DNA of 64,000 bases from Terriglobia bacterium (GTDB lineage Bacteria > Acidobacteriota > Terriglobia > 2-12-FULL-54-10). The position numbers and the translations under genes were made by a program. Under the pieces are notes generated by a model, which saw nothing but the letters and a program-made list of their open reading frames with translations, did not search any database and was not told the origin of the DNA. Numbering within the stretch: the stretch's first letter is position 1; each line of letters opens with the position of its first letter. The DNA lies in NCBI GenBank assembly GCA_965222345.1, contig CBDCTS010000007.1, positions 191,076 to 255,075 on the forward strand, written 5' to 3'. Below are positions 1 to 53,575 of this stretch, piece after piece.

Positions 1-185
1 TTTGCTGGGAGTATTTGTCAGCGCCGGGTCGTTCTTCCTGGGCTTTTTATGGGCCGCCGTCGACGAGGAACGTCTCTCCTGGCACGACCGCATCTCCAAG
101 ACCTTCCTTACCACGGCCAATCGCCCGTAATGACGTTCTGACCTGCCGGAAGCGAGAACCCTGGCCGGGAACCGTCCGTAATTTA

Positions 186-1322
186 TTATTCCGGTTGAGT
201 TGCAACGGGAGGACCCCGAAAAACTTTGATGGCCAGATCGCGGGGACCAAGCCCCACTGGCACCAAAGTGAACAGTGACCGCACGGCTGTATCGATAACG
301 GCCAGCTCGCTCGACAGACTATTGAGGACCAGCAGATAATGATCATCCGGGGTAAGCGCCAGCGCATCCGGTTGCGCTCCAACGGGAACCGAAGCCAGCA
401 CCCTGCGGTTGATGATATCGAGCACTGAGACGGTGTTCGAGCCGAAATTCGTGATATAGAGCAAGGTCCCAGCGCGATTCGCCACGGCCCGGCTCGGGTT
501 GGAACCTGCCCTAAGATTTCCTGTCACCTCGTCGGCATAGGTATTGATCACCGTCACCGAGTCGGAGCCGAAATTGGTCACAAATAATTCTCCCGCATCC
601 GGCTTCAGGGCGAGGCCTGCGGATGTCTTCCCGGACTCAAGATGGGTAATCAGCTTATGCGATCTGAGATCAATGGCTGAAATATTGCCGCTACCCGTGT
701 TGCCGACAAAGACCTGAGAGCCGTCGGGAAGCATCGCCAGGGGACCCGGCTCGCTTCCCACCTTCACGTCGGCTACCTTCCTCATCTGTTCCAGGTCAAT
801 GATGCTGACTGTGTTGCTACCGCGGTTCGATACAACCAAAAGTTTTCCGTCCGGCGTGGCTTTGGCCTGTGTGGGGTATTCTCCGGTGGGGATGGTGTTG
901 CTGACTTTTCTGCCGAACAGATCCACGACGGAGACGGTGCCGGACCCCGCATTGGCAACGTAACCGGTTTTTCCGTCAGGTGAAAGCTCCAACCCAAACG
1001 GAGAGCGTCCCAGAGAGATCGCTTCTCCCGTCTCCAGATTTTCGGCATTCAGAAATTCGAGAGTTCCCGAACCGGTATTGACCACATAGACCTCGTTGCG
1101 GACCGGGCTGGCCGTCACCCCCGTAGGTCCCCTTCCCACGGGGATCGTGCCCCGCACCCGGAAGGTTCCGAGATCGATCACCGTCACCGTGTCGTTTTTT
1201 CCGTTGGTCACAAAAACGTACTGCCGCAGGACAGCAGCAGCGGTCTCCAGTGTGGCTTGCTGGCAGCCGGTCCAGAAAAGGGCGCAACTCAGAAATAGGG
1301 CCGCAGTCAGACTCTGTTTCAT
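186..1322 (-). CDS. YVTN-family beta-propeller repeat lipoprotein (secreted)
   Basis: 378-aa ORF. N-terminal lipoprotein signal (MKQSLTAALFLSCALFWTGC). Repeated approx. 40-aa units with the 'VYVVNTGSGTL / VTNFGSDSVTVI / YITNFGSNTVSV' pattern typical of YVTN beta-propeller repeats. Confidence 0.6.
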   Translation of the reverse strand: MKQSLTAALFLSCALFWTGCQQATLETAAAVLRQYVFVTNGKNDTVTVIDLGTFRVRGTIPVGRGPTGVTASPVRNEVYVVNTGSGTLEFLNAENLETGEAISLGRSPFGLELSPDGKTGYVANAGSGTVSVVDLFGRKVSNTIPTGEYPTQAKATPDGKLLVVSNRGSNTVSIIDLEQMRKVADVKVGSEPGPLAMLPDGSQVFVGNTGSGNISAIDLRSHKLITHLESGKTSAGLALKPDAGELFVTNFGSDSVTVINTYADEVTGNLRAGSNPSRAVANRAGTLLYITNFGSNTVSVLDIINRRVLASVPVGAQPDALALTPDDHYLLVLNSLSSELAVIDTAVRSLFTLVPVGLGPRDLAIKVFRGPPVATQPE

Positions 1323-1574
1323 TTCAAGAAAAATAGGAAAACTCCGTCAAACAAGCCGGGCGAGGCGGCCTGTGTGCGTTCTGCCAGTATGCCGCTTCAC
1401 TGAGTTCCCCTTTTATTTTATTATCTCCCATCTCCGGCCCAACTCTTCCGGTTATTTACGGCGCATCTGCTGCTTGCCGGCGGAAAAGGAACCGGCACTC
1501 TCCCAGCAAAGCGCCCCGGAGCTATGCTAGAATATGAGTTTATATCCCTTGCAGGAATCGCGCGACTTTCAGGA

Positions 1575-2258
1575 ATGGCGAGAATGGTTGAGATTATCCC
1601 CTCCATACTGTCGGCCGATATGGCGCGGCTGGCCGAAGCGATGGAATCGGTCAAGGCCGGCGGGGCCAATCACATCCACGTGGACGTGATGGACGGGCAC
1701 TTCGTGCCCAACATCACCATCGGCCCGCCCGTGGTCAGCTCGCTTCGCCGCGCCACGGATCTTTTGCTGGATGTCCATTTGATGATCGAAGACCCGGACA
1801 AATACATTCCCGATTTTGTGCGCGCGGGCGCCGACCTGCTGTCGGTTCATCAGGAGGCCACCCGGCATCTGGACAGATCCTTGAATCTGATCCGGTCGAG
1901 CGGCGCGCAGGCCGGCGTGGCGATTAATCCATCCACCCCGGTGGAAACCCTCTCGGCAGTGCTTGAAATGGCGGACTTTGTGCTGGTGATGTCGGTGAAT
2001 CCGGGCTTTGGAGGACAGAAGTTTATCCCTTATACTTTAGGGAAGGTCCGGCAATTGGACCAGATTCGGCGGGAGACCGGCCTGCCGTTTCGGATTGAGA
2101 TCGACGGAGGCTTGAATTCGGATAACATTGGAGAGGCCGTGCGGGCTGGCGCCGGGATGATTGTCGCCGGATCGAGCGTCTTTCACAGCGGGAATCCGCG
2201 CCAAGCCGTCGAACAGATACGCAAGGCGGGAAATGAGGCGACCTTGAGCCGGATTTGA
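1575..2258 (+). CDS. rpe: ribulose-phosphate 3-epimerase
   Basis: Motifs IIPSILSAD, HVDVMDGHFVPNITIGP, MSVNPGFGGQKF and a length of about 228 aa match Rpe. Start placed at the internal Met (MARMVEIIPS) rather than the track start at 1524. Confidence 0.85.
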   Translation: MARMVEIIPSILSADMARLAEAMESVKAGGANHIHVDVMDGHFVPNITIGPPVVSSLRRATDLLLDVHLMIEDPDKYIPDFVRAGADLLSVHQEATRHLDRSLNLIRSSGAQAGVAINPSTPVETLSAVLEMADFVLVMSVNPGFGGQKFIPYTLGKVRQLDQIRRETGLPFRIEIDGGLNSDNIGEAVRAGAGMIVAGSSVFHSGNPRQAVEQIRKAGNEATLSRI

Positions 2259-2309
2259 TTTCCGGCTGCGCGGACTTCAGGTTTATCGCTGATTTTTGGA
2301 GGATTTGAG

Positions 2310-3368
2310 ATGAGACCGAAGGCGAGGTGGGTGCTTCTTTTGGCGGCCGGAATATTTCTTGCTTCCGGATGTTCTCTCCGGCGGCATCCCATTGAGACCC
2401 CCATAGTCAACAATTCGCAGCAGCCGGACAAGGAGCTGTTTGACCGGGCTGTCGAAGATATGGAGCACTCCCGTTATACCGTTGCCCGCCTGACATTCCA
2501 AACGCTCATCAACGCCTACCCGGACAGCGAGTACCTGGCGAAAGCCAAATTGGGCATTGCCGATTCCTGGTATCGCCAGGGAGGCACCAGCAATCTGTTG
2601 CAGGCGGAAGCGGAGTACCGTGACTTTATCACCTTCTTTCCCACCATGCCGGAGGCGGGCGAGGCCCAGATGCGCGTGGCCATGATCCATTACCGGGCAA
2701 TGGAAAAACCTGACCGGGATCCTACGCGCGCGCAAAGAGCCGAGCAGGAATTTCAGAAATTATTGCTCACCCATCCGGACGGCCCTTTTGTTCCACTGGC
2801 CACCCAGCGGCTCCGGGAGGTGCAGGAGGTGCTGGCTCAGGGAGCCTTTGAGATTTGCCGTTTCTACTATCTTCAGGGCGCGGACCGGGCCACGCAGCCC
2901 CGCCTGCAGGAACTGGTCGAGCGTTACCCGAACTTCAGCCAAACCGACGAGGCCTTGTACATGCTGGGAAGCTCTCTAGAACGGTCCGAAGGCGAGGCTG
3001 TCGCCAGAGCGTCGGAGTACTATTCCCGTATCGTCCGGGATTACCCTCTCAGTCCGCGCGCCGAGGACTCTAAAAAGAGCCTGGCGGCTTTGGAGGCTCC
3101 GATCCCAGAGCCTGACCCGGCAGCGGTGGCTCGCATGACCTACGAAAACACTCACGCAGGCAGCATCGGATTGTGGGATAAAATGATGGGAGCCTTCAAA
3201 CGGCATCCCAATGTGAGCGCCGCCCAAGGAAAAACCGGCCCTCCCACCATGACCGCGCAGGGACCGGCACAAGTGGAGGCTTCCGTTGCCACCGGCGGCT
3301 CCTCCCCGAGCGGTTCCACCACGTCAATCTTCCTGGAACCGGTAACTGAGGAAGGTTCCAGCGAATAG
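2310..3368 (+). CDS. TPR-repeat outer-membrane lipoprotein, BamD/YfiO-like
   Basis: Lipoprotein signal (LLLAAGIFLASGCS), TPR-like helical repeats (AKAKLGIADSWYRQG..., EALYMLGSSL...) and a Pro/Ser/Thr-rich C-terminal tail. Call rests on the lipoprotein plus TPR architecture. Confidence 0.5.
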   Translation: MRPKARWVLLLAAGIFLASGCSLRRHPIETPIVNNSQQPDKELFDRAVEDMEHSRYTVARLTFQTLINAYPDSEYLAKAKLGIADSWYRQGGTSNLLQAEAEYRDFITFFPTMPEAGEAQMRVAMIHYRAMEKPDRDPTRAQRAEQEFQKLLLTHPDGPFVPLATQRLREVQEVLAQGAFEICRFYYLQGADRATQPRLQELVERYPNFSQTDEALYMLGSSLERSEGEAVARASEYYSRIVRDYPLSPRAEDSKKSLAALEAPIPEPDPAAVARMTYENTHAGSIGLWDKMMGAFKRHPNVSAAQGKTGPPTMTAQGPAQVEASVATGGSSPSGSTTSIFLEPVTEEGSSE

Positions 3369-3494
3369 CCGCTCCATGTCCCTGGACCGTGAAAGCTTCT
3401 CTCGAAGAGGATAGTTTCCCGGAACCGGTCCCTGCCTCCCAGCCGCTTCCGGAGAGAGACAAGTCCGGCTTGCCCCAAACTTCCCTTAAATCCG

Positions 3495-3803
3495 CTACTG
3501 ATTGAAGATCGAATCCCACTTTTTGCGGACATCGTCAGAGGAAACGCCCGACTTGCGGGTGAGGTCCACGCCCGTCCGGGCCTCGAAGTAGTCGCAGTAG
3601 TTTCCCTTGTCCTTGGATCGCACCCACTCGGCCTGGGTCTCACGGCATTCGTTATGAACCGAAGGATCGAAGAAGCGGCAGTTCTTGCAACAGTGCAGGT
3701 CGGCGTCGCAGTCGGGGCATGTATCCCGTTTCAGAACCTTCTGCCCGGCAAGCACCTGGATGGCCCGTCCGCAGCTAAAGCAGGAAAAGGTTACATCCGG
3801 CAT
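3495..3803 (-). CDS. small cysteine-rich zinc-ribbon protein (hypothetical)
   Basis: 102-aa ORF with CxxC...CxxC...CxxC spacing (CFSCG, CPDCD, CKNCRF) suggesting Zn-ribbon fold; not overlapping neighbours. Confidence 0.4.
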   Translation of the reverse strand: MPDVTFSCFSCGRAIQVLAGQKVLKRDTCPDCDADLHCCKNCRFFDPSVHNECRETQAEWVRSKDKGNYCDYFEARTGVDLTRKSGVSSDDVRKKWDSIFNQ

Positions 3804-3925
3804 GAAGGCATTTTAACATATGAAGGATCTCTCTGATCTGCAAGGCTCATCGGCGGGCCGTGCGCCGGGCCAAAAATCTCCCCGGACGGCTTTCCCATCC
3901 TGATCCTCATGCTATATTCCAACCG

Positions 3926-6082
3926 ATGATCACACTCTCCACTCCGGTCCAATTCATCAAAGGCGTAGGGGAGGAAAGAGCCCGGATTCTGCATAACAAG
4001 GGCATCTTCACCGCCGAGGACCTGCTCTACACCGTTCCCTTCCGATATGAAGACCGCACGGTGCTGCGCGGACCGGCCGAGGTTCGCTCGGGCGAGATGG
4101 CAACGGTGATTGCCCCGGTGCTCCGGGCCGGAATGCTGCGCCTGCGCCGGAAAAAATGGAGCATTTTCCAGGCGGAAGTCGGCGAAGGCCCCCATCGGCT
4201 GAACTGCAAATGGTTCAATGCCGCCTACCTGCAACGCCTCATCCATCCCGGCCAGTATTTGGCTCTCCATGGCAAGGTGGAAGAGGATGTCTACGAGGGC
4301 GGTCTGCAAATGACCCAGCCGCAATATGAAATCTTACCGGAGCCTCCCGGCAGTTCTGCCACTCCTGCCCAGTCCCTGGAGGTGGGCCGAATTGTTCCGA
4401 TCTACGAATCAGCCGGCAACGGTCGTCTGACCTCGCGTTTTTTCCGGCGGGTGATTCATTTCCTTCTGGAATCGCTTTCCGGAATAGAAGACCCGCTGCC
4501 CCTTGCGGTGGCCGAGCAGTACCGCCTGATCCCGCGCTGGGAGGCAATCCGCAACATTCATTTCCCTCCCCCGGGGAGCCGGCTCGCGGAGTTCGGGGAG
4601 TTCCGGAACGCCGCCCAACTTCGCCTGATCTTCGAAGAGTTTTTCTTTTTGGAGGTTGGGCTGGCGCTCAAGCGCAATCTGGCGCGCGAAATGCACGGCA
4701 TCGCCTTTCGTACGGACCCCAAAATTCGCGAGTCCCTGAAGAAGGTCCTGCCGTTTCACCCTACCTCCGCCCAGAAGAAGGCATTGTCGGAAATCGTAGC
4801 GGACATGCGCGCCCCCCGTCCAATGCACCGGCTGCTGCAAGGGGACGTTGGCAGCGGCAAAACCATCGTGGCCTTGCAGGCCGCCCTCATCGCGATGGAG
4901 AACGGATACCAGGTGGTGATGATGGCTCCCACCGAGGTGCTGGCCGCGCAGCACTTCTTCTATTTTCGCCGCATTCTGGACCCCTCCGGTTACCAGGTTC
5001 TTCTGCTGAGCGGCAGCGCCACGGCCCGCGAAAAAAAAGTCTTGAAAAGGCTGCTGCGGGAAGGCAGCGTCCAAATGGCCATCGGAACCCACGCCCTGGT
5101 GGAGCAGGACGTGGAGTTGCCGGCCCTTGGGCTGACCATCATCGATGAACAGCACCGCTTCGGTGTGATGCAACGTCTTCGCCTGATGCAAAAGGGCCGC
5201 ACGCCGGACACTCTGGTGATGACGGCTACGCCGATACCACGAACTCTGGCCCTGACGCTCTATGGTGACCTGGATGTTTCGACCATCGACGAGATGCCTG
5301 CCGGCCGCCTTCCCGTTCACACACGCCAGATCCCCGAGGAGGCCGCCTCGCAAGCCTACCAGTTTGTACGCTCCGAGGTGGCTTCCGGCGCCCAGGCTTT
5401 TATCGTTTACCCGCTGATTGAGGAATCCGTCCGGCCCCAGAAAACTACGTCGGCCCAAAAAAGGAAGTCCGGCATAGTAGACCTCAAATCGGCGCTGCAA
5501 ATGTATGAATTGCTGTCCAAGGAAACCTTTCCGGAATGCAAAGTCGGCCTCCTACATGGCCGCCTCCCGGCAGAGGAAAAAGAGCGCACGATGCAGGGAT
5601 TCCAATCCGGTGAAATCCAGATTCTTGTCGGCACCACGGTGATCGAAGTGGGAGTCGATGTGCCCAACGCCACCGTCATGGTGGTCGAGCAGGCCGAACG
5701 CTTCGGGCTTGCCCAGTTGCACCAGTTGCGAGGCCGCGTGGGCCGTGGGCGCAGGCAGTCCCACTGCCTGCTGCTGACCTCGCGACGGCAAACCGAGGTG
5801 GCGCGGCAGCGCCTGGCCGCTCTGGAGGGCAGTAACGACGGTTTTCAAATCGCCGAGCTGGACCTGCGCCTGCGCGGGCCGGGCGAATTTCTCGGCACCC
5901 GCCAGTCCGGCCTGCCCGCCCTGCGCATGGCCAATCTGCTGCGCGACCGCGAAATCCTGGAGTGGGCCCGCCGCTTGGCCGGCGACTTTGTCGAACGCGG
6001 CAACCGCCGGGAACTGGCTCGATTGACGAACTACATTAAGCAAAACTGGAATCGTCGATATGGTCTGGTAGAGGTGGGCTAA
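3926..6082 (+). CDS. recG: ATP-dependent DNA helicase RecG
   Basis: N-terminal wedge domain, Walker A (GDVGSGKT), DEQHRFGV, the helicase C domain and the QLHQLRGRVGRG motif; RecG-like length of about 718 aa from MITLSTPV. Confidence 0.9.
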   Translation: MITLSTPVQFIKGVGEERARILHNKGIFTAEDLLYTVPFRYEDRTVLRGPAEVRSGEMATVIAPVLRAGMLRLRRKKWSIFQAEVGEGPHRLNCKWFNAAYLQRLIHPGQYLALHGKVEEDVYEGGLQMTQPQYEILPEPPGSSATPAQSLEVGRIVPIYESAGNGRLTSRFFRRVIHFLLESLSGIEDPLPLAVAEQYRLIPRWEAIRNIHFPPPGSRLAEFGEFRNAAQLRLIFEEFFFLEVGLALKRNLAREMHGIAFRTDPKIRESLKKVLPFHPTSAQKKALSEIVADMRAPRPMHRLLQGDVGSGKTIVALQAALIAMENGYQVVMMAPTEVLAAQHFFYFRRILDPSGYQVLLLSGSATAREKKVLKRLLREGSVQMAIGTHALVEQDVELPALGLTIIDEQHRFGVMQRLRLMQKGRTPDTLVMTATPIPRTLALTLYGDLDVSTIDEMPAGRLPVHTRQIPEEAASQAYQFVRSEVASGAQAFIVYPLIEESVRPQKTTSAQKRKSGIVDLKSALQMYELLSKETFPECKVGLLHGRLPAEEKERTMQGFQSGEIQILVGTTVIEVGVDVPNATVMVVEQAERFGLAQLHQLRGRVGRGRRQSHCLLLTSRRQTEVARQRLAALEGSNDGFQIAELDLRLRGPGEFLGTRQSGLPALRMANLLRDREILEWARRLAGDFVERGNRRELARLTNYIKQNWNRRYGLVEVG

Positions 6083-6780
6083 AAGCCTGCTGGATAAAGC
6101 AATTTCAGGGTTTGCGTAAACATCGTTGTGGATGAGCAAACTTCCCATTTCGCCAACTGCCTCATTTCACCCATTTGACAGTAATAAACTTGGCTGTTTG
6201 GCGCCTGCACGTGGCTGTAGGAACGATAGAGTTGCACTTTTTTTGGCTTAGCAAAACAACTTTTTGTTGATTCTAATAGACCTGTTGGCTTCGTTTGGTA
6301 ATATATACCCCTTTCCCGCAAACTCATCTTCCTTCCAGACGCATTTCCAACGTCAGGCGGGGGAGCTAGGACGGCACCTCGGTCTCGGTGTTTATTCAGC
6401 GCGCTCATACGGTCGGTTATCCTGCAGCAGATTCCTGTGAAAAGAGAATCTTTTCGAGAATTCCAAGGATTCCGAATTGGTAAGTGGGGCAGGCATTCCT
6501 GCCTCAGGTAGCGACAGGCCTCCAGGCCTGTACCCCCTTTGCTCCGCATCGCAGCGTTTCCAGTTGCTTGCCATTTCTCATTTACACCTGCCGGCAAACC
6601 GCTCTAACCGCGCCGAATGGCTTTGCTTTGCAGAACAAAGCCAATGCCCAATCTTCTGAATATCTCATATCTCCTTTTTATACAATTGATTAGCTGGATA
6701 CCAGAAGTTTTGAAATGGCTTTGTTTTGCAAAAAAACTTTTCTTCCCGCTCCCCTTCCCCTGCAAGCTAAACAAAACCAG

Positions 6781-6902
6781 CTTCACAAACGCCCTCCGGC
6801 CCGATTGTCCCTCGCGGCAAATTTCGGAGGCAACAAAATTCTTCCGAATATTCCGAATCTGCCGAATCTACCGAGGAAACCGAATCTGCCGAATCCGTTC
6901 CG
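6781..6902 (+). repeat. copy A of an approx. 120-190 bp repeated element containing tandem TTCCGAAT/CTGCCGAAT units
   Basis: About 80% identical to the reverse complement of 54095-54215. Shared core 'ccggcccgattNtccctcgc...ggcaacaaaatt...ttccgaNNattccgaatctgccgaa...ccgaggaaaccga'. Confidence 0.55.
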
Positions 6903-7571
6903 ATAATGAGTTAAAGTGTTGATAAAACAGCTAATTTATGGAAATGACATTCAAGCTTACATTCTTAACCCACAGAATTTCGGCGCTGAACGGCCGTTTG
7001 AAGGGGGTAGCTCAAAAGCGGAAGTTCCGGCGCTTCAACCGATGGCTCTCTAAAACTGGATCCCGAACCTGTAAGAAGTCGGTGTATTCCCAGGCGTCGG
7101 AGTCCAACACCGCTTCCACCGTCAGCTCCGCACTGATCGAGAAGCGACTCTGGACAGTCGATCGCGTGCCGCCCGTGTTGATGTCGCCACGTCGTAAAAA
7201 CTGTTCGACGCGACGCGGTGGGGGCGGCACGGTTCGATTACGGCACTCGATCCGTAGAGGCCCGGGCGACCGTTGGGCCGTAGCCAGGGCATCGCATGAG
7301 CAAGGATTGCTGGACTAGGACAGAAGGCTGCATCAGCTGCTTCAATTCATGACCCACGGGACGCACCATCGCGAACAACTTCTCAATCATGATCACGCTG
7401 ATGGGTTAAAGCCAGCCCTTTGAGGACGGAGATTTCGGAGGCTGCTCCAATGCTCTTGACGAAGCTGCTTGAGACCCGCTTTTCTCGTTTGTTTTTGTCT
7501 CGACTGGGGGGTATCGTATACTCTATGCAGGGTGGTAAATTACGGGTGGAGACACCGGAACAGGAGATCAC

Positions 7572-8327
7572 ATGAACAATTTTTCGAAAATGGCCCAAGT
7601 GTTGACGGATGCATTGAAGTTGAAGACATCGCCCGTTGCTGTTTGCATCATGGACGAAGCTCCCAACGATGTGCCGGCCCACGGCGGCGCAGTAGCCGCC
7701 GGGTGTATGTTCTGGGAGGAAGGTTCGCAGAAGGCGTTCAACACCACGGGGAAGGATCATGAGAACTGCACCGTGGGAATGTACACCCACCACATGCCGA
7801 TTACCACCAAGACGCAAGAAGCAAACCTCAACGACAGCTTGAAGGTGTTTGGCGATCTCGGTTACGTCCGCCCAGAGGACCTGCCGCTGGTGCCGGTGCT
7901 GAATCGCGAGGCCAAAAATGTGGTCTACTCACCGCTCGGCAGCGCGCCCGCAACGCCGGATGTGGTGTTGTTGTTTGTGAACTTCGCCCAAGGGTTGATC
8001 GTGTCGGAAGCGGCACAGCAGGTGGAGGGCAGTATCGCTCCGGCGCTGGGCCGTCCGGCCTGCGCCGTCGTCCCGCAGGCAGCCAACACCAAGCTGGCTG
8101 CTCTCAGCCTGGGTTGCTGCGGCGCTCGCGCTTACCTCAATGTCATGACCGATGACATTGCACTGTGGGCCATTCCCGGCGACAAGCTGCAGGCGTACGT
8201 GGATCGAGTTGAGGTGCTGGCGAAGGCCAACGCGATCCTCACCCAGTTCCACGGGATGCGCAAGCAGGACATCGCCAGTGGAAAGAACCCGACCATACAG
8301 GAGTCGCTGGCCCGCTTCTCCGCGTAG
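7572..8327 (+). CDS. DUF169-domain protein (uncharacterized ArCR, COG2043-like)
   Basis: 251-aa ORF; sequence features and length consistent with DUF169 proteins; clean ORF with Shine-Dalgarno-like ggagatca upstream. Confidence 0.65.
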   Translation: MNNFSKMAQVLTDALKLKTSPVAVCIMDEAPNDVPAHGGAVAAGCMFWEEGSQKAFNTTGKDHENCTVGMYTHHMPITTKTQEANLNDSLKVFGDLGYVRPEDLPLVPVLNREAKNVVYSPLGSAPATPDVVLLFVNFAQGLIVSEAAQQVEGSIAPALGRPACAVVPQAANTKLAALSLGCCGARAYLNVMTDDIALWAIPGDKLQAYVDRVEVLAKANAILTQFHGMRKQDIASGKNPTIQESLARFSA

Positions 8328-8419
8328 TTGCCCGACATCGCAGGCGCGGCAAGGGTCTCCGGTAAACCAGAGTCCACGGCGGGAATCCCGCTCGCCGTGG
8401 ACCCCCCGTACCAATTTCA

Positions 8420-8610
8420 GCGAGGATATACGCATCGTGCCGTGCGACGCTTCATGCGACGGACACGGCCTGAAACTTCGCCTCGATCTTTCTGGCGCCA
8501 GACGTTGGCTGCAGCGGCTGGTCATTCACGGCAAGCCAAGAACGCTCGGCCTGGGCGGCTATCTGCTGGTTTCGCTGGCCGAGGCCAGAGAAAAGGCCTT
8601 CGCCAACCAA
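8420..8610 (+). pseudogene. remnant of tyrosine recombinase (P4-type integrase) N-terminal arm-binding domain
   Basis: The translation 'DGHGLKLRLDLSGARRWLQRLVIHGKPRTLGLGGYLLVSLAEAREKAFANQ' matches the DUF4102/Arm-binding consensus (GLyLrV.psGsKsW..RYr..GK...lGLG.YP.vSLAEAReKA). No catalytic domain follows. Confidence 0.5.
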
Positions 8611-9063
8611 GCTGACCACGCCGGAGGGGCTGGCCTGGTGAGCGAGTTCACCAACCGGGACACCTCGACCGGCCGACGTTATGCTCGCCGGGGAAAAAGA
8701 CCCTCGCTGGCTTTTTGTAGAAACCGGTCGTGCGGTTCGAAATGCTGGTCCGGCGGATTGCTTGTCGGCGGTAACACCTCAAAACAAGTACGGCGGGACA
8801 TCGTGCACCGACCTGATCCGTTTCGGATCAGGCTCCGACCCTCTGTAGAGCCTCAACCAATGCTTGCATACCATGACAGCCCGACGCGCGGTAACCAGAC
8901 CGCAGTCCGTCCACTGGCCGCACCCGTGTGCCGGAAGCACAACCAGCGATCTCCGATTCGCAGCCCACGCCGGTTGCTACCCCTAGCGTAGCCGTCAATC
9001 AAGACGCCGTTCACCTTCCGCGCCTTGGGGAGGGTTTCCAATCACGTGTGTCACCCACGAGGT

Positions 9064-11830: not shown

Positions 11831-13756
11831 GTGAACTCGACGGCAAAAACAATTGTATTCTGGACTGTCATGCTGGCCACTGCCCTGCTGCTGTGGCAGT
11901 TTGTCAAATCGGGGAGTCCTGCCGAAGACGAGCTTTCCTTTACGGAATTCATGGAACAGGTGGATCAGGAAAACATCTCGGAGATTACCCTCTACGGCAA
12001 CAATGAGGTTCAGGGCCACTTCAAGGAAGATAACAGCCTCCTGAAAACTGTGGTCCCCAACGACTATCCCGACTTGATCCCCATCCTCCAGGATAAAGGC
12101 GTCAGGATCAACGTCAAGGAAAGCTCCACCAGTTCCTGGGTCAGCATTCTCGTGAACGCTTCGCCTTTCCTGCTCTTGATCGGCTTCTGGATTTTCATGA
12201 TGCGGCAGATGCAGACGGGAGGCAACAAAGCCCTTTCGTTTGGTAAAAGCCGAGCCCGCCTGCTCTCGACCCAGCAGAAGAAAATCACCTTCAAGGACGT
12301 GGCCGGAGTGGACGAGGCCAAGGAAGAACTCCAGGAAATCATCGAGTTTCTGCGGGACCCGCAAAGATTTCAAAAGCTGGGGGGGCGGATTCCCAAAGGG
12401 GTCATTCTGGTGGGCGCGCCGGGGACCGGCAAGACGCTGCTGGCGCGCGCGATTGCCGGGGAGGCAAATGTTCCCTTCTTCTCCATCAGCGGTTCCGATT
12501 TCGTGGAGATGTTCGTCGGGGTGGGAGCCAGCCGGGTGCGGGACCTCTTTGATCAAGGCAAGAAGAACGCCCCCTGCATCATATTCATCGACGAAATCGA
12601 CGCCGTGGGCCGCCATCGCGGCGCGGGGCTGGGCGGCGGGCATGACGAGCGCGAGCAGACCTTGAACCAGTTGCTGGTGGAAATGGACGGCTTTGAGTCC
12701 AATGAAGGCGTCATCCTGGTGGCTGCTACCAACCGCCCTGACGTTCTGGACCCCGCCCTGCTCCGGCCGGGCCGGTTCGACCGCCGGGTGGTGGTCCCGC
12801 GGCCTGACGTAAATGGCCGCCTGGGAATTCTTCAGGTTCATACCAAGAAAATCCCTCTTTCCGAGGACGTGGATCTTTCGGTGATTGCTCGCGGCACGCC
12901 GGGCTTTTCCGGCGCCGATCTGGCCAATGCGGTCAACGAAGCGGCTCTCACTGCCGCCCGGCCGGGCCATACATCGGTCGGGATGGTCGATTTCGAGACA
13001 GCCAAGGATAAAGTCCTGATGGGAGTCGAGCGGAGGTCGCTCATCATCAGCGAAGAAGAAAAGAAAAACACCGCTTTTCACGAGGCGGGCCATGCCCTGG
13101 TTGCAAGCATCGTTCCCCATGCTGATCCCCTGCACAAGGTGACCATTATCCCGCGCGGCATGGCCTTGGGCGTGACCATGCAGCTCCCGGTCGATGACAA
13201 GCACACCTACACGAAAGAGTATCTTGAAAGCCAGCTCGCCGTCATGATGGGCGGCCGGCTGGCCGAGGAGCTTTTCCTCAATCATCAGACAACCGGAGCG
13301 GGTAACGACCTGGATCAGGCCACCTCAATGGCCCGCAAGATGGTCTGCGAATGGGGCATGAGCAATCTGGGACCGCTGACGTTCGGCAAGAAAGAAGAAC
13401 AGATATTCCTCGGACGCGAGATTGCCCAGCACCGCGACTTCAGCGAGGATACGGCCATTCGCATCGATCATGAGGTCAAGCGGCTTGTTGATCACGGCTA
13501 CCAGCAGGCCAAGACCATCCTGACGGAAAATCGCGACAGTCTCATCCGGATTGCCGAAGCTTTGCTGGTGCGGGAGGTCCTGGACGCAAACGAAGTCAAG
13601 ATGATCCTCCGGGGGGAATCGCTGCCGGTTAAGCAAGTGGTGGGGAATCCCCCCGACGAAACGGACCAGACACAACAGGTTCTCAAGCCGGGCCCCGCGC
13701 GAGCCCCTGAGAAATCGCCTAGCTTGGCTGAGGGCGAGAAACCGGCTCCCGCTTAA
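11831..13756 (+). CDS. ftsH: ATP-dependent zinc metalloprotease FtsH
   Basis: Two N-terminal TM segments, Walker A GPPGTGKT, the SRH motif, the zinc site HEAGHAL and a length of 641 aa. Confidence 0.95.
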
Positions 13757-38537: not shown

Positions 38538-40439
38538 CTACTCGGCCCTCGCCGTCGCGTACCGGGATTCGTTGCTAAATTCCAGCTGTGGCCCGATGGG
38601 GTCCCGGCCCAGCTCTTGGGCAAACTCGTTTCGCAATACCTCAATCTTTCCGCCCACCACCGTCAGGACGGGAAAGAGATTGGGAATCTCTTCTTCGGGA
38701 ACTGTGAAGTAATCCTGGTTCAATACCACCAGATCGGCCAGTTTGCCCGCTTCGAGAGTTCCTAATTCGTTCTCCCGCATGACAAACTCGGCCGGCCAGG
38801 ACGTCATCATCTTCATCAGCGTCATGCGGTCAATCGCCTCTTCCGGCGCCACCATCGCCCCGTACTCGTTCCTGCGGGTGATCAGGGCGTAACCCTGGCT
38901 GAAGTAGGTTTCGCCCACGTTTCCGCTTATCCCGGCTTCGTTTTCGTAGACCGTTCTCACTCCGCCATCGATCAAACTCTTGACCGGCGAAATCCAGTTG
39001 GCGTATTGCATGCCGTAGCGTTCCAGCCACGGGTAGCTTCGGCTCAGCACGTTGCCGCCGCAACTGATCATCATGCCGAGACGGGCCATGCGGGGAATCT
39101 GATCCGGACGCGGATAGAAACCGCAATGGTCGGAGCTGAACCGCCGCGAGCGGATATAGTCCAGCGTGATGGTGGGATCGAGCGTCATGGCCTCTTCCAG
39201 GGTGTCCATGAAATAATCCACCGCCTTGTCCCCATAGGCATGGCCTGCGGCCACCCGTTCCTTCGACAGGACTGCGGTCAGAACGGCTTTCCCGGTGGCC
39301 GAGCCGGGCGTGTCCCGGCAATACTCTCGCTCTTTGATCTCCGGAGGAGCTTCCATGGTGCTGCAAATCATCGGGGGCCCGGAATCCAAGTTGCCCAGCC
39401 CCACTCCGGCAGACCAGAAGTAATCGTTTCCAAGCCCTTCCATGTCACCCAGCCGCATGTAAAAAGAGGCCGGGTCGGAATTGCCCTGGAATCCAAAGTA
39501 ATGCGTGTAGGCATACCGGATGGGCATGCGGTTCTCCCGAATGAGAATCTGGTAGGCATTGAGGAATTGCAGGCCCATCATATGCGATGAGAACGTGGTA
39601 ATGCCCGCCGCCGCATTTTTCCGCAGGCCTTGTTCCACAATATCGGCCAGTTCTCTGGGCCTGATCCGAAAGTAGCCGTCCACCAGCAAACCCCTTCGAT
39701 ATTGCGTCAGTTCGCCGACTCCTGCGTCGTCGGTGGTGTCCATGACCACTTCCGGAACTTTCCCGTATATCTTTTCAATGGCCTCTTTCCCCCGCGTATT
39801 GATCATGTACGCCGGATGGGACAGAAGAAACACCGGATTGTCGGGAGCGAGCGCGTCCAAATCCTTGAGGCCCATTTGATCTTCCTGCAAAAATTTCACT
39901 CCAATCCCTGTCCCGGAGCCGGGATTTTCCGGATCATTGGTGGGCAAAGTAATAAAGGCCCACTGGTCCGGGTCCGTTCCGGTCATGCGCTCCTTCAGGA
40001 CCAGTTCAATGCCCTTTTTCAACTCCTCGTAGGACATCCCTCCGACTACAAAGCGCCTGCCCATGGTATCGAAGGCAGCCGGATTCTGGCTGACCCACCA
40101 GTTCACCTCATTGTTGTGTATGTGAGTGTGGGAGTCCACAAAGCCCGGGACCACCGTTTTGCCCTGCAAGTCGATTCTTTCGGTGTTGGGGCCGGCGTAG
40201 GAGAGGATTTTGGCGTCGTCTCCGAGAGCCTGGATTCTGCGGTTGTGGACCGCGACAGCTTGGAAGATACTTCCCGGCGAAGAACCCGTGGAAGTGTCAT
40301 CCATCGTCACGATCCTGCCGTTGTAAAGGATCAAGTCCGGATAGGAGATGATGGCCACCGGCACGGTCGCCGTCTCCTGCGCAGCCGCCCAGGAAACCAT
40401 CACACACAACACCGCACACATTCGTATCAGGTTACCCAT
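38538..40439 (-). CDS. secreted metal-dependent amidohydrolase (Amidohydro_3 family), paralogue 1
   Basis: Signal peptide (MGNLIRMCAVLCVMVSWAAAQ); metal-binding HxH (DSHTHIH); C-terminal ...VVGGKIEVLRNEFAQELGRDPIGPQLEF shared with paralogues 2 and 3. Confidence 0.8.
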   Translation of the reverse strand: MGNLIRMCAVLCVMVSWAAAQETATVPVAIISYPDLILYNGRIVTMDDTSTGSSPGSIFQAVAVHNRRIQALGDDAKILSYAGPNTERIDLQGKTVVPGFVDSHTHIHNNEVNWWVSQNPAAFDTMGRRFVVGGMSYEELKKGIELVLKERMTGTDPDQWAFITLPTNDPENPGSGTGIGVKFLQEDQMGLKDLDALAPDNPVFLLSHPAYMINTRGKEAIEKIYGKVPEVVMDTTDDAGVGELTQYRRGLLVDGYFRIRPRELADIVEQGLRKNAAAGITTFSSHMMGLQFLNAYQILIRENRMPIRYAYTHYFGFQGNSDPASFYMRLGDMEGLGNDYFWSAGVGLGNLDSGPPMICSTMEAPPEIKEREYCRDTPGSATGKAVLTAVLSKERVAAGHAYGDKAVDYFMDTLEEAMTLDPTITLDYIRSRRFSSDHCGFYPRPDQIPRMARLGMMISCGGNVLSRSYPWLERYGMQYANWISPVKSLIDGGVRTVYENEAGISGNVGETYFSQGYALITRRNEYGAMVAPEEAIDRMTLMKMMTSWPAEFVMRENELGTLEAGKLADLVVLNQDYFTVPEEEIPNLFPVLTVVGGKIEVLRNEFAQELGRDPIGPQLEFSNESRYATARAE

Positions 40440-40637
40440 AGAATCACCGCCTTCAGCAGATGGATTACAGTATCACAAACGGAGCCCAGCTTACCCAAAA
40501 GCCAATATGCGGTAGTGGGTCAGTTCCCGTCAGGCACAACTCCACCCGATTTACCAGGGCACGGGTTTAACCCGTGCCCTGAAGTTGAAACGAACTCACT
40601 ACCCAATCTGCTTATCCTGAAAAGTTGCAGCTCTCTG

Positions 40638-42551
40638 CTATTGCGCCGCCGCGTACCGTTCTTCGAATATAAATTCCAGTTGGGGTCCGATGGGGTCCCG
40701 GCCCAGTTCCTGGGCTAACTCACCGCGCAACACCCGAATCTTGCCGCCGACAATCGTCATGAGTGGAGTGGTGTCTTCCAGTTCTTCCACAGGAACGGTG
40801 AAATAGTCGTTACTGAGCACCAGAATATCGGCGAACTTCCCCGGCTCCAGCGTCCCCAGCACGTCTTCCTTGAGAACAAACCGGGCAGGCCAGGAGGTCA
40901 TCATCTTCATCAAGGTGATGCGGTCAACGGCTTCTTCCTCGGCAACAAAATAACCGTACTCATTTTTCCGGGTCAGAAATGGCGCCGCTGAGCCAAAATA
41001 CGAGCGGCTGACATTCCCTCTGACTCCAGCCTCGTTTTCCAAAACTACCATCACCCCGCCCTCGATGGCGCTGCGGACCGGAGCGATCCGGTCGATGTAA
41101 TCCATGGAATATCTCTGCAGATGGGGATAGCTTCGGCTCAGCACATTCGCCCCGCAACTGATAATCATGCCGAACCGGGCCAGGCGGGGAATCTGCGCTT
41201 TGCGCGGATAGAAACCGCAATGATCCGAGGTCAGCCGCCGCGAGCGGATATAGTCCAATGTGATCGCAGGATTGTCACGCATGGCAGACTCCACGGCATC
41301 CAGGAAATAATCCACGCCTTTGTCCGCGTAGGCATGCCCCACGGCCACCCGTTGGTAGTTGGCAATTGCCGTTCGAGTTGCCTCGTAGTAAACAGTACCC
41401 TCGGCATTGTCGCACCACTCCATATCCTTCACTTCCCCGGGGGCCTCCATGGTGGAACACATCCGCGGCGGGCCGGAATCGATGCTGGAGAGTCCCACAG
41501 CGGTTTGCCAGAAATAGTCGCTCCCCATTCCAGCCATGTCGCCCATCCGCCGGTAGAAGTTTTCCGCCTCCCCATAGCCGGCTTGGAAACCAAACCAGTG
41601 CGTGTAGGCAAAACGAATCGGCATGCGATTTTGCCGGACCAGCATGTTAAAGGCGTCGAGGAACCGCAGACCCATGATGTGAGACGAGTAGGCTGTAATT
41701 CCTACGGCGGCGTTTTTCAGCAAGCCTTGCTCCACCAAGTCAGCCAGTTCCGGCACCCGCGTATGGAAATACATATCGATGATCAACGCCCGCCTGTACT
41801 GCGCCGCCGTGCTGCGGACTCTTCCGGACTCATCGAGCCCGGCCGCTCTGGGGTCGAATTTGGAGCCGTAGAGCCTTTCCATGCCCCGCGTGGCATCAGT
41901 GTTCATCACATAGGAAGGATGCGAATAAAGCATGATCGGGTGATTCGGGGCCAGCGTGTCCAGCATCTCCATAGTGAATTTTTTTCCAGCCAGATACGCC
42001 ACGCCCGGCGACAATCCCGAGCCGCCTCCTCCGGTGGTGCTGACGGTTATAAAGGCCCACCGACCCGGGGCCGCACTATTGACATGTTGCTGGACCGCCA
42101 GCCGGACCGCTTGCTCCATCTCCTCGTCCGTATTGCCGGACACACTGACCGACTCCGCCAGCTCCGTCAGCACCTGCGGATTCTGACTGACCCAGTAGTT
42201 CAGCTCGTTGTTGTGGATATGCGTGTGGGCGTCGACGATGCCGGGCATCACCATCCTGCCTTTCACGTCGATCCGGCTGGTTTCCGGGCCGGCCAGGCTC
42301 AAAATCCGGTCATTGCTTCCGACCGCCTGGATTTTGCCGTCCCGGATCGCCACCGCCTCCGCCGTCGTTCCCCGCGATGTGTTCAGGCCGAAGGAGGTGT
42401 CATCCATCGTCACAACCTTGCCGTTGTGGAGAACCATATCGGGGTAGGCCGCAATCTCTTGCGGGACGGTAACCGTGTTCTGCGCACTTGCTACCGCGCA
42501 GAAAAGAAAAAAACTAATACAGAAAACCAAGCTGTTACTTATTCTACTCAT
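40638..42551 (-). CDS. secreted metal-dependent amidohydrolase (Amidohydro_3 family), paralogue 2
   Basis: About 70% identical to paralogue 3 by eye; signal peptide; DAHTHIHN motif; start set at MSRISNSLVF. Confidence 0.8.
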   Translation of the reverse strand: MSRISNSLVFCISFFLFCAVASAQNTVTVPQEIAAYPDMVLHNGKVVTMDDTSFGLNTSRGTTAEAVAIRDGKIQAVGSNDRILSLAGPETSRIDVKGRMVMPGIVDAHTHIHNNELNYWVSQNPQVLTELAESVSVSGNTDEEMEQAVRLAVQQHVNSAAPGRWAFITVSTTGGGGSGLSPGVAYLAGKKFTMEMLDTLAPNHPIMLYSHPSYVMNTDATRGMERLYGSKFDPRAAGLDESGRVRSTAAQYRRALIIDMYFHTRVPELADLVEQGLLKNAAVGITAYSSHIMGLRFLDAFNMLVRQNRMPIRFAYTHWFGFQAGYGEAENFYRRMGDMAGMGSDYFWQTAVGLSSIDSGPPRMCSTMEAPGEVKDMEWCDNAEGTVYYEATRTAIANYQRVAVGHAYADKGVDYFLDAVESAMRDNPAITLDYIRSRRLTSDHCGFYPRKAQIPRLARFGMIISCGANVLSRSYPHLQRYSMDYIDRIAPVRSAIEGGVMVVLENEAGVRGNVSRSYFGSAAPFLTRKNEYGYFVAEEEAVDRITLMKMMTSWPARFVLKEDVLGTLEPGKFADILVLSNDYFTVPVEELEDTTPLMTIVGGKIRVLRGELAQELGRDPIGPQLEFIFEERYAAAQ

Positions 42552-42697
42552 TGGAGCTGACCTCCTTAGTTTTGCTAATGTCGCTAGTTTGAAGCGGCTG
42601 GTTTGGCCGCGAAAACGCAGGCCGTCATCCATTCGCTTGCCGCATCTTTATAAATTTCCGCACCTTGCACCTAACGGACCGGCCGGACTCGGACAAG

Positions 42698-44626
42698 TTA
42701 CATGGCCGGCGGCCGCTCCGGAGGGGAATAAAGAGGATCGTTCCGGAACTCGATCTGCGGCCCGACGGGATCACGGCCCAGTTCCTGAGCCAACTCGTTG
42801 CGCAACACGACGATCTTCCCTCCAACAACCGTCATGAGCGGGATCGTGTTCGGCATCTCCTCTATCGGTATGGTGAAATAGTCCTTGCTGAGCACCAGGA
42901 AGTCCGCGAACTTGCCCGGTTCGAGCGTTCCCAGCACATCCTCCTTCAGGACGAAGAGCGCTGCCCAGGAGGTCATCATTTTCATCAGGGTGATGCGGTC
43001 AATGGCCTCCTCCGGCGCAACCAGCGCTCCCTGCTCGTTTCTTCGGGTCAGCAGCGTGGAGGCATCCCGGAAATAGCTGGCGGCTGTATTGCCGCGACGG
43101 ACGGTGCTGCCTCCCTCGTCCTCGAGCACCACCCGCACTCCGGCCTCGATGGCGCTGCGGACCGGAGAGATACGGTTGGCGTATTCCGGGGAATATCTTT
43201 GCAGCCAGGGATAGCTTCGGCTGAGCATATTCCCCCCGCAGGCGATTGTGATGCCGAGCCGTTTCATGCGGGGAAGCTGCTCTTTGCGCGGATAAAAACC
43301 GCAGTGGTCGGTGGTGATGCGCCGGGAACGGATATATTCCAACGTGATGGCCGGATTGTCGCGCATCGCCTCCTCAATGGCGTCCATTACGTAATCGAAC
43401 GACTTATCGCCATAAGCATGTCCCACCTGAACTCGCTGATAGTTGGCGATCGCCGTTTTCGTGGCCTCATAGGTGAGCGTGCCCGCAAAATTCTGGCAGA
43501 ACTCCTTTTCCTTTACGGCACGCGGCGCCTCCATGGTGGAACAAATCCGGGGCGGGCCGGAATCCACGCTTCCCAGCCCCACGGCAGTTTGCCAGAGATA
43601 GTCGTTCCCCATCCCGGCCATGTCGCCCATTCTCCGGTAGAAATTTCCCGCTTCCTGGTAGCCCGCCTGGAAACCAAACCAGTGGGTGTAAGCGAAACGG
43701 AGCGGCATGCGCTTTTGCCGGGCCAGCATGTTGAAAGCGTCCAGAAATCGCAGCCCCATGATGTGAGAGTTATAGGTGGTAATTCCTACGGCGGCGCTTT
43801 TCGCCAGGCCTTCCTCCACAATCTCGGCAAGCTGACCGACCCGGGTATGAAAATACTGATCGATAATCAATTCCCGGTTGTATTGAGCAGCCGTATTGTG
43901 GGCGTTGCCGTGCTCATCGACCGCTTCGGCGGAGAGCTGGGAACCGTAGAGGTTCTCCATGGCGGCGACGGCTGCCGAGTTCATTACGTAGGCGGGGTGG
44001 GAGTGCAACAAAACCGGATGATTCGGGGCTATTTGGTCCAACCGCTGCCTGGGAAACTTCCGCTCCTGCAGAAACGCCACCCCCGGCGCCATTCCCGAGG
44101 GACCCCCTCTGCTTCCCACGGCAACAAAAGCCCACAGACCGGGCTGCGCTTCCTCTACATGCTGCTCGACCGACAGCGCGACCCCCTGCTCCAACTCCGA
44201 GTCTCTCGTGCCCGCAATCACATAGGCCTTGGACACGGCCTCCAGCACCTCCGGATTCTGGCTGAGCCAGTAGTTCAAGGAGGTGTTGTGGATGTGCGTG
44301 TGGGCGTCGATGATGCCAGGCATCACCGTCCTGCCGTTCACGTCGATCCTCTCCGTTTCGGGACCTGCCATGCGCAGGATTCGGGCATTGCTCCCGACCG
44401 CCTGAATCTTGCCGTTCCGGATCGCCATCGCCTCTGCCGTTGTTCCCTGCGACGTGTTCAGTCCGAAAGAGACGTCATCCATCGTGGCGATCTTGCCGTT
44501 GTGTATGATACGGTCCGGGTAGGCGGCAATCTCCTCCGGGACGGTAACCATATCCTGCGCGCTCATCGTCCCGCATAGCAACAACAGGCTGACGGCCTCC
44601 AACACCACTCCCCGTAATTGTTTCAT
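42698..44626 (-). CDS. secreted metal-dependent amidohydrolase (Amidohydro_3 family), paralogue 3
   Basis: Signal peptide; DAHTHIHN motif; long collinear identity with paralogue 2 (e.g. RFLDAFNML.RQ.RMP.RFAYTHWFGFQAGY). Confidence 0.8.
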   Translation of the reverse strand: MKQLRGVVLEAVSLLLLCGTMSAQDMVTVPEEIAAYPDRIIHNGKIATMDDVSFGLNTSQGTTAEAMAIRNGKIQAVGSNARILRMAGPETERIDVNGRTVMPGIIDAHTHIHNTSLNYWLSQNPEVLEAVSKAYVIAGTRDSELEQGVALSVEQHVEEAQPGLWAFVAVGSRGGPSGMAPGVAFLQERKFPRQRLDQIAPNHPVLLHSHPAYVMNSAAVAAMENLYGSQLSAEAVDEHGNAHNTAAQYNRELIIDQYFHTRVGQLAEIVEEGLAKSAAVGITTYNSHIMGLRFLDAFNMLARQKRMPLRFAYTHWFGFQAGYQEAGNFYRRMGDMAGMGNDYLWQTAVGLGSVDSGPPRICSTMEAPRAVKEKEFCQNFAGTLTYEATKTAIANYQRVQVGHAYGDKSFDYVMDAIEEAMRDNPAITLEYIRSRRITTDHCGFYPRKEQLPRMKRLGITIACGGNMLSRSYPWLQRYSPEYANRISPVRSAIEAGVRVVLEDEGGSTVRRGNTAASYFRDASTLLTRRNEQGALVAPEEAIDRITLMKMMTSWAALFVLKEDVLGTLEPGKFADFLVLSKDYFTIPIEEMPNTIPLMTVVGGKIVVLRNELAQELGRDPVGPQIEFRNDPLYSPPERPPAM

Positions 44627-44841
44627 ATGACACCGGTCTCCTTGAGATTTCCCGAAGCCGACTGCTTAGCCCTCTCAAAAGGGATAATACCAGAATCGCG
44701 CACTTTTGCCAGTCAATGAAAATCCAGCCGCCTGGCTGCACGCATTCAGGATGAGAATGCAGCCCAACGCGGCCAAAGTCGAAATACCTCAAAAAGAAAA
44801 AGGCGACGGGCAATATCGTCACCCTGCCGCAAGAATCCCGT

Positions 44842-46755: not shown

Positions 46756-47224
46756 CAAAGCACCTCCAGCCATGACGTGTTCATAGGGTGATCCACCCCT
46801 TCATGGACTTCTGTTAGCCTGATGATTTACTTTGCATGGTTTTGTCCGCCAGCGACAAATAGTATCTCTGAGTTCCCAAGACTCAAAAACATATTCCCGC
46901 TCTGAGGTTCCTTCAAAAGCTTTCCAGGAACCAGCATGTCAGAATAGCATCCAGAAACTGGTAAGAGATTATCACGCTTTCTTTCCCAAAGGAAACAGCC
47001 GACCGTATTCTCTTATTCCCTGTAGAAATCCAACACGCCATCAAACAACCCTCAACCTGCCACAAATTGCTTTACCCTTCCCCCTCGTGTAAGCTTCCCC
47101 CATATTTGCAATCCGGCGGGGCACTGACCACCGCCGGGAGGGAAAACCAACGCCGCGTCCAAGTTCCCTTCCGTATCTTTTCGACCGCGAAGGGTCAACC
47201 ACGCAGGGTCAATGAGGAGGAGCC

Positions 47225-53219: not shown

Positions 53220-53575
53220 TCCTGCCACGTCCAGGCAAGAACGCTTGCGGCTCCGGCATCGACATCCGACATCGGGGACTGTTTTTTCCGGCGGATGAAT
53301 TCCCTTACGGATTTCTTTGGTCGAAGCGAAATCAGGAATGAGTCCGGATATTGCGGAATGCCTCGCTCAATTCGAATCAGAGGGTCAGGGCCGAACGCTG
53401 CAACCCCATAGTCGTCTCAGCCAACAGCCATCTAACAACTCGGCGGGCATCGATCTGAAACGATGCATGCAAGCCCCCTCGGTTCGTATTGCAGGAGGCG
53501 TCCTGTTTGTGCAAGGCCCGGCAATGTTAGGCGATTTGGGCATACCTCGGCTATACTGGGATTAGGTTTGCCGCG

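Follow-up and report, generated by a model that had tools for sequence, protein, structure and literature searches.

Several multivalent-motif arrays are known in bacteria, at the level of both RNA and DNA. Small RNAs of the CsrB/RsmZ type bear many GGA motifs, mostly in hairpin loops, and those of the CrcZ type combine AAnAAnAA motifs with an RpoN (GG-N10-GC) promoter. On DNA, ribbon-helix-helix arrays include the omega heptads and the MetJ met-boxes. CrcZ is a small RNA that sequesters Hfq–Crc (PMC4063720). The ParG sites of plasmid TP228 contain 8 (OF) and 12 (parH) tetramer boxes, 5'-ACTC-3', separated by regular 4-bp AT-rich spacers; one ParG dimer occupies each box, binding strength rises with the number of boxes, and the boxes of parH are degenerate and functional in either orientation (PMC3130281). 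The present study concerns a repeated, CCGA-bearing element in a 64,000-nt stretch of DNA from an uncultured, soil-type Acidobacterium (contig CBDCTS010000007.1, positions 191,076 to 255,075; hereafter the window). The element is present at two loci, as copies A (A1 and A2) and B; it is a genuine feature that encodes no protein, is confined to one lineage, and has no relation to any curated family. As judged from sequence comparison, constraint is clear only for CCGA, the core of a 9-nt array that varies between strains, and the element most likely serves as a multi-site docking platform for a putative RNA- or DNA-binding factor.

By architecture, the element can be regarded as a variant of the known multivalent-motif arrays. 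Membership in the CsrB, CrcZ, or parH families can be rejected, because in each case at least one defining test fails. Like CsrB/RsmY/RsmZ and CrcZ/CrcY, it is a stand-alone intergenic unit in which a short motif is repeated in an accessible context, it has several paralogs, and the number of motifs varies; the proposed logic, titration of a binder, would also be the same. Unlike those RNAs, it carries the core CCGA(R) rather than GGA or AAnAAnAA, in a strict head-to-tail 9-nt array rather than in hairpin loops; it has no Rfam match, and its transcription is predicted. GGA is not a conserved feature of the copies: it is found in four of the eight array units of B, in one of the six of A, and once in L121, the ortholog of a close relative (L-numbers denote retrieved comparison loci and strain contigs), and no hairpins present it. 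There are no A-rich AAnAAnAA motifs, and the sigma-54-like TGGC...TTGCA of A2 has GG-N9-GC. A literature search for comparable small RNAs built from 9-nt repeats found nothing relevant.

The likeness to OF and parH lies in the tandem 4-bp core boxes, mostly direct, with regular short spacers in an AT-rich non-coding setting, here one CCGA per 9 bp and 5–10 boxes. The period of 9 bp differs from the 8 bp of parH, the core is invariant where that of parH is degenerate, and the element is chromosomal and multi-copy; neither gene-free gap has an adjacent gene for a binding protein or for a ParA-type partition ATPase (Pfam, nine small open reading frames [ORFs]). As in bacterial minisatellites (variable-number tandem repeats, VNTRs), unit number differs between near-identical strains (6 to 5, 8 to 10), but the units are heterogeneous around an invariant 4-nt core and sit inside a larger conserved, duplicated module. 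With REP/BIME sequences and miniature inverted-repeat transposable elements (MITEs) it has in common that it is multi-copy intergenic DNA with GC-rich hairpins at gene ends; in contrast to them, it has no terminal inverted repeats, its hairpins form one module only, and the direct-repeat array is what defines it. Clustered regularly interspaced short palindromic repeats (CRISPR) are 23–50 nt long and are separated by unique spacers of similar length, whereas the units here are 9 nt long, head to tail, and have no spacers; a first-pass annotation of the window had rightly set CRISPR aside.

Results

An Invariant CCGA Core in a Strain-Variable 9-nt Array

In A, CCGA occurs at 6844...6889 (six units with a 9-nt period), with one more CCGA 11 nt on; in B, which lies on the minus strand, eight units run from 54162...54099. 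The pattern CCGA-N5-CCGA-N5-CCGA has 10 matches in the window, all of them in these two arrays, against 0.04 expected. The first-pass annotation had described a 3' run of five to six imperfect units of 8–10 bp; the units are indeed in tandem, but their period is a regular 9 nt and they number six in A and eight in B.

When the 22 in-register units of A, B, and L121 are pooled, the consensus unit is ATTCCGAAT. Positions 4–7 (CCGA) are invariant, with 0 changes in 88, and 21 of the 22 units have a purine at position 8, whereas the five non-core positions are off consensus in 43 of 110 cases (39%; Fisher p 2e-13, or 6e-10 with inner units only). This test treats the units as independent, and because they are related by descent, units 1–3 of A and of B being positional homologs, a conservative count of mutational states is fairer: at least 11 distinct states are seen outside the core, over five positions, and none within its four positions, giving (5/9)^11 = 0.0016. 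All 14 differences between the window and L121 arrays fall outside CCGA, and arrays with intact cores are found in three diverged copies (A2, B, and L121) despite a 28–50% difference at non-core positions. In the decayed copy A1 the cores read TCGA and CCAA, an indication of how CCGA changes when constraint on a copy is lost.

Both arrays vary in unit number in the manner of VNTRs. Array A of strain L153 has exactly one unit fewer (6 to 5), and strain L139 has 19 nt extra in array B, with ten units instead of eight between flanks that are >99% identical. The period is not absolute, for there is one 11-nt step in A and one of the ten L139 units is 10 nt long. Invariance of the core amid this turnover points to a specific, as yet putative, binder.

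Extent and Setting of the Element

Blastn aligns A 6779–6883 on the forward strand with B 54226–54114 on the reverse strand at 80.7% identity over 114 columns (E 1e-26), and MAFFT and a repeat finder concur. The proposed pair of homologous copies, ~80% identical, in opposite orientation, and ~47 kb apart, therefore withstands a proper aligner, which had been set beforehand as its test. The size of 120–190 bp given in the first-pass annotation was too small: the homology is modular and spans 6504–6905 in A and 54521–54094 in B, well beyond the extent first proposed, so that the full repeated unit is ~400–430 nt. A third, degenerate copy, A1, occupies 6262–6535, and locus A thus consists of two tandem copies (A1 and A2). 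Overall, element lengths are ~200–430 nt, and there are at least three gene-free copies in this uncultured Acidobacterium.

Both loci lie in AT-rich non-coding DNA, as had been noted at the outset. GC content is 0.47 at 6001–7000 and 0.53 at 54001–55000, compared with ~0.58 elsewhere in the window. The gene-free gaps measure 1.49 kb (6083–7571) at A and 1.31 kb (53220–54531) at B; their nine small ORFs gave no Pfam matches, and public gene callers annotate almost nothing inside them. The neighbouring genes encode RecG, a DUF169 protein, an amidohydrolase, and a MoCo-binding dehydrogenase.

All reading frames of the array were examined, since 9 nt equals three codons. No open frame with a canonical start is common to A2, B, and L121, a 1-nt indel in the conserved core sets A apart from B and L121, and a six-frame pseudo-protein built from the three concatenated copies had no match at E<=10 among 5.8 billion proteins. 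Each frame has an invariant third-codon position in the array, which argues that the constraint acts on the nucleotides themselves and not on a protein. The view that the element is non-coding is thus upheld, by the lack of a shared start-bearing frame and by frameshifting indels between strains and between paralogs.

Modular Anatomy

In the reading direction, the modules follow the order GC-rich hairpin pair, block C, variable spacer, P-module, CU-rich stretch, conserved core, and CCGA array, and a four-way alignment shows identical polarity in all four copies. The features are as follows.

6262–6308, forward strand: P-module heading A1, the best copy at locus A, 87% identical to B 54304–54258 and 89% to the L121 ortholog
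6277–6282 and 6299–6304, forward strand: promoter-like hexamers of the A1 P-module, by inspection; TAGACC, a 16-nt spacer, and TAATAT preceded by TGG
6309–6480, forward strand: body of A1, ending in a degenerate three-unit array at 6451–6477, TTTTCGAGA ATTCCAAGG ATTCCGAAT
6486–6531, forward strand: GC-rich hairpin pair, GGGGCAGG-CATT-CCTGCCTC and ACAGGCC-TCCA-GGCCTGT
6537–6607, forward strand: conserved block C, upstream of A2, 84% complementary to 54402–54457 (blastn 78%, 96 columns, E 6e-17)
6701–6745, forward strand: diverged P-like module of A2, from alignments, with TGGCTTTGTTT at 6716–6726
6746–6780, forward strand: CU-rich stretch of A2, which varies in sequence and length between copies; 83% identical to L121
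6781–6840, forward strand: conserved 5' core of A2, TTCACAAAC...TCCGGCCCGATT.TCCCTCGC...CGGRGGCAACAAAATT, 92% identical to L121 and ~85% to B
6841–6907, forward strand: CCGA array of A2, six 9-nt units at 6841–6894, then the out-of-register TTCCGATAAT
54465–54521, reverse strand: GC-rich hairpin pair upstream of B, just past the amidohydrolase stop codon (54532)
54390–54457, reverse strand: block C of B
54258–54304, reverse strand: P-module of B; AAGACT 54289–54284, a 16-nt spacer, and TAATTT 54267–54262 (hexamers by inspection)
54166–54257, reverse strand: CU-rich stretch (with CACCUCC) and conserved 5' core of B (core 54226–54166)
54094–54165, reverse strand: CCGA array of B, eight 9-nt units

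Within A1, 6414–6477 matches positions 114–178 of the element model (nhmmer, E 4e-4), and strains L130 and L133 have TTTCCGAGA as the first unit. The A1 array is followed directly by the hairpin pair at 6486–6531, which also forms the 5' boundary of the A/B homology. The fold of 6470–6545 has an energy of -30.2 kcal/mol (z -1.97), and without mismatch the hairpin pattern is found within the window only at the two element loci. The hairpins form a family, GTAGCG-NC-AGGC..GCCTG (GGCAGGCATTCCTGCC), of which L121 holds 4–5 tandem copies (12460–12900) and three more after its array (13125–13230). Block C is missing from L121. Among the strains, L131 has an 18-nt deletion in block C (6571–6588), and in L133, L148, and L152 part of the second hairpin is duplicated by an insertion of 28 nt, so that the block C/hairpin part evidently tolerates indels. 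The conserved 5' core contains a possible hairpin, CCUCCG(G)/(C)CGGRGG.

The motif TGGCTTYGYTT, taken from the P-module, has seven matches in the window against 1.25 expected; six of the seven lie in the two element loci, in both orientations, and the motif may be a separate protein-binding site. Its sites are at 6285–6296, 6617–6644, 6715–6726, 6769–6779, and 54270–54281, with an inverted pair of perfect spacing at 6618–6643.

Distribution Among Relatives and Strains

The closest named relatives by RecG are uncultured Acidobacteria known from metagenome-assembled genomes. In L121, whose RecG has 94.6% amino-acid identity and 13.1% divergence at four-fold sites, the element stands at the same place after RecG (12902–13124) and has eight CCGA units. 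Identity between the window and L121 is 89% in the P-module, 83% in the CU-rich stretch, 92% in the 5' core, and 72% in the array, compared with ~87% at RecG four-fold sites, taken as neutral, and this suggests little purifying selection apart from the CCGA core. The element is not at the RecG locus of relatives whose RecG is 74–88% identical (L122–L125 and L128), where a gene for a TonB-dependent receptor directly follows RecG instead, nor is it beside a 93%-identical amidohydrolase homolog (L127). At these two loci, where syntenic absence was checked, the relatives are without the whole segment (6083–9000 at the RecG locus) rather than showing a clean empty site.

Wider scans found no further member. 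Genome contigs searched with (CCGAR-N4)x4-CCGA yielded perfect 9-nt coding repeats, mostly from Actinobacteria, and none was element-like. Viral contigs searched with GGCAACAAAATTNTTCCGA gave four matches, all by chance and inside coding sequence, and plasmids and phages gave none with blastn in distant mode. Metagenome contigs searched with TCCGGCCCGATTNTCCCTCGC gave a single match (L126), which has no array and no further similarity. That contig (Ga0335075_10411997) carries at 600–880 an unrelated, MITE-looking intergenic segment of ~270 nt between 22-nt inverted repeats (TAGAGGCTGTTATTAACT...), which shares only the 21-nt search pattern.

The element was thus found only in strains of this Acidobacterium and in one close relative, and its absence at the RecG and amidohydrolase loci of other relatives indicates a family that is, on this comparative evidence, young and narrow. 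The first-pass annotation had raised the prospect that only two copies exist and that neither is conserved in related genomes. This proved partly right, given the absences at the RecG locus of the 74–88% relatives and beside the 93%-identical amidohydrolase, and partly wrong, as there is a decayed third copy and one relative has an ortholog. Element A is identical in all retrieved strain contigs except L153, and 15–16 carry an identical DUF169 protein. Two strain contigs cover B, one of them with two extra units.

An Integration Hot Spot at Locus A

In several strains (L129, L132, L137, and L145), an island separates RecG from the element. It takes the place of the sequence on the RecG side and meets the window sequence exactly at 6506/6507 (island side of the junction: 1–1935 / 1–8935), within the hairpin GGTAGCGACAGGCC at the left edge of the A/B homology. 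The island encodes a tyrosine integrase (Arm-DNA-bind_3, Phage_int_M, and Phage_integrase) and, as cargo, a 1364-aa PIN-TPR-GreABC protein and a 643-aa Permuted_GreAB-C protein; this cargo looks like defence. A truncated integrase with Arm-DNA-bind_3 only is encoded at 8278–8991 on the forward strand (Pfam E 4e-9; 65% over 51 aa to the island integrase). This suggests that 6507–9000 may be the remnant of an earlier island.

Discussion

The reading we favour, with a probability of roughly 35%, is that the elements constitute a small family of noncoding RNA genes in which an unstructured 3' CCGA(R) array titrates a putative binding factor. Each would be a stand-alone gene of ~200–250 nt, the window would contain three of them, A1 in decayed form, and transcription would proceed from the P-module through the CU-rich stretch and the conserved core into the CCGA array. 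The unstructured 3' half would display 5–10 copies of single-stranded (U)CCGA(R) and would act as a multivalent decoy that, like CsrB/RsmZ or CrcZ, titrates a sequence-specific binding factor, with gain and loss of units tuning decoy capacity. More doubtful is the larger claim that this is a new class of Acidobacteria decoy RNA, in which the (U)CCGA(R) array sequesters a putative global RNA-binding regulator and capacity is VNTR-tuned.

We infer transcription, its strand, the promoter, a 3' end at the hairpin pair, and the binding factor from several features of the loci. The four copies share one polarity, the P-module is upstream, and in A1 and L121 a hairpin pair comes after the array; this GC-rich pair is strong and lies ~10–20 nt past the array (z -3.7 in L121). 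Hexamers resembling -35 and -10 boxes with 16-nt spacing are present in A1 (TAGACC...TGG-TAATAT) and B (AAGACT...TAATTT) and are also conserved in L121. The B and L121 elements do not lead into a co-oriented gene. The arrays fold weakly (-10 to -13 kcal/mol, z -0.15 to +1.7), which, as far as predicted folding can tell, is compatible with an accessible single strand, and in the one conserved stem, CCUCCGG/CCGGRGG, three one-sided changes are all G-U-compatible on the stated strand, although with three sequences this is weak evidence. Recognition of single strands typically relies on an invariant motif of 4–5 nt and tolerates errors of spacing, as seen here, and tandem paralogs, such as A1–A2, are common in small RNA families. 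The invariance of CCGA, its decay in A1, and a constraint on nucleotides rather than on a protein also favour this reading, and the tolerated 10- and 11-nt steps are easier to reconcile with short single-stranded motifs that act independently than with a DNA filament in phase.

A number of observations speak against noncoding RNA genes. Neither strand has a significant RNA fold, the 180-nt bodies having z from -0.49 to +1.6 relative to shuffled controls. The promoter-like hexamers, which were read by inspection, are below the scanner threshold of 9/12, and A2 and the element copy of L121 have degenerate versions of them. No terminator directly follows the array in A2 or B. Outside CCGA, conservation of the ortholog is barely above neutral (5' core 92% and P-module 89%, against 87%). 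The presence of TGGCTTYGYTT in both orientations looks more like DNA sites, no candidate gene for the binding protein was identified, and the independent element sequences number three or four, too few for covariation.

Known RNA families offer no match: across the whole window, Rfam gave none at gathering thresholds, and at E<=10 only chance-level hits (eukaryotic microRNA and small nucleolar RNA models and similar) with 13–19 bits against cut-offs of 49–101. Four candidate signals were considered and rejected. A sigma-54 promoter fails in that TGGCTTTGTTTTGCA of A2 has N9 rather than N10 between GG and GC, and B is without GC there; a sigma-28 -10 box (CCGATAA at the end of the array) has no -35 partner and is not in L121. 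Recognition of YC by Rho would leave the invariant G and A unexplained, and an Hfq (ARN)n site would need contiguous triplets, whereas each unit has one A-R-N triplet.

An iterated binding site or a small RNA, the two possibilities raised by the first-pass annotation, are still the best readings, and they are close rivals. On the DNA side, the elements would be double-stranded arrays of CCGA boxes (4-bp core, 5-bp spacer) coated cooperatively by a small DNA-binding protein, for example one ribbon-helix-helix dimer per box; they would function as operators, titration sites, or centromere-like sites, and TGGCTTYGYTT would mark further protein sites. Only slightly less probable than RNA genes, this explanation gains from the architecture, which matches the ParG sites of TP228, from the AT-rich gene-free setting with a second short motif in both orientations at the same loci, and from unit numbers that vary between strains; the lack of an RNA fold, a strong promoter, and a terminator, with nothing convincing of either kind in A2 and B, also fits it. 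It is harder to reconcile with the fact that neither gap contains or adjoins a partner gene, whether ribbon-helix-helix, ParA, or another, with copies that are chromosomal and multiple, and with the one 10-nt and one 11-nt step, which break phasing; moreover, parH tolerates degenerate boxes in either orientation, while the CCGA core is invariant and strictly direct. We consider it improbable, though by no means negligible, that the array is instead a functionless minisatellite in a segmental duplicate of intergenic DNA, in which slippage changes the array and core invariance reflects descent from a few unit types. The confinement to one species and one close relative, the near-neutral conservation outside the core, the unit-number polymorphism at >99% flank identity, and the decay already visible in A1 would all be expected of such a sequence, as would the positional homology of units 1–3 in A and B, which are not independent observations. 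Such descent does not readily account for 0 of 88 core changes against at least 11 independent flanking states, or for intact cores in A2, B, and L121 despite 28–50% non-core difference.

Two further explanations carry far less weight. It is very improbable that the element is a mobile-element remnant, with the array providing arm-type sites for an arm-binding tyrosine integrase or the unit itself being a MITE. Locus A is an integration hot spot, with an island joined at 6506/6507, a truncated integrase of the same arm domain at 8278–8991, and relatives that are without the entire 6083–9000 segment. Yet the junction-proximal DNA of the island has no CCGA repeats, so that the repeats are not in element DNA at the att core, and the array, 335–400 bp away from the junction, has the same sequence whether or not the island is present; no integrase is found at locus B. 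Known arm-site clusters comprise 2–3 sites, not 5–10 of varying number. As for a MITE, no terminal inverted repeats common to A and B bracket the unit, there is no sign of mobility, and the RecG-adjacent copy holds the same position in L121; the earlier description of the element as MITE-like is not supported. Largely refuted is the reading of the array as a short coding sequence, for a small protein or a leader peptide, whose product would repeat a tripeptide (x-Pro-Asn/Lys/Arg when read in the CCG frame, Ser-Glu-x one frame on) and whose translation would begin at GGAGG/GGGGG-N7-AUU immediately ahead of the array. It would explain a period of three codons and the Shine-Dalgarno-like GGRGG that lies 7 nt before AUU in all copies, inside the best-conserved block GGCAACAAAATT, and in copy A an ATG ORF (6715–6906) does run through the array. 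Against it stand the lack of any canonical-start frame open in all three copies, the 1-nt core indel between A and B or L121 together with the 19-nt insertion within the L139 array, the invariant third-codon position in every frame, the absence of any gene placed there by public gene callers, and the empty pseudo-protein search.

Acidobacteria are abundant in soil and genetically poorly studied, and to our knowledge almost nothing is known of their post-transcriptional or nucleoid-level regulators. The array could be used as bait to fish out its putative binder. If the elements are RNA genes, they would add a new recognition motif and a strain-variable architecture to the few known protein-sponge RNAs; if they act as DNA, they would represent a chromosomal counterpart, in several copies, of the box arrays found in plasmid centromeres or operators; and if neither is the case, they would be a lineage-specific minisatellite of little consequence.

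Other Features of the Window

Between folP and the gene for a 428-aa 2-oxoacid dehydrogenase E2, an indel of ~810 nt distinguishes some strains from others (~14700 of the window; 16294–17943 in L145–L154). The insert downstream of folP holds an ORF of 163–169 aa, and the window has the short form. On the reverse strand, 38538–46773 contains four tandem paralogous genes of ~633–664 aa at ~2.1-kb spacing (repeat families D1–D5, 68–81% DNA identity). These may be further amidohydrolase paralogs, because several ~50–55% matches to the B-locus amidohydrolase sit on contigs of this species.

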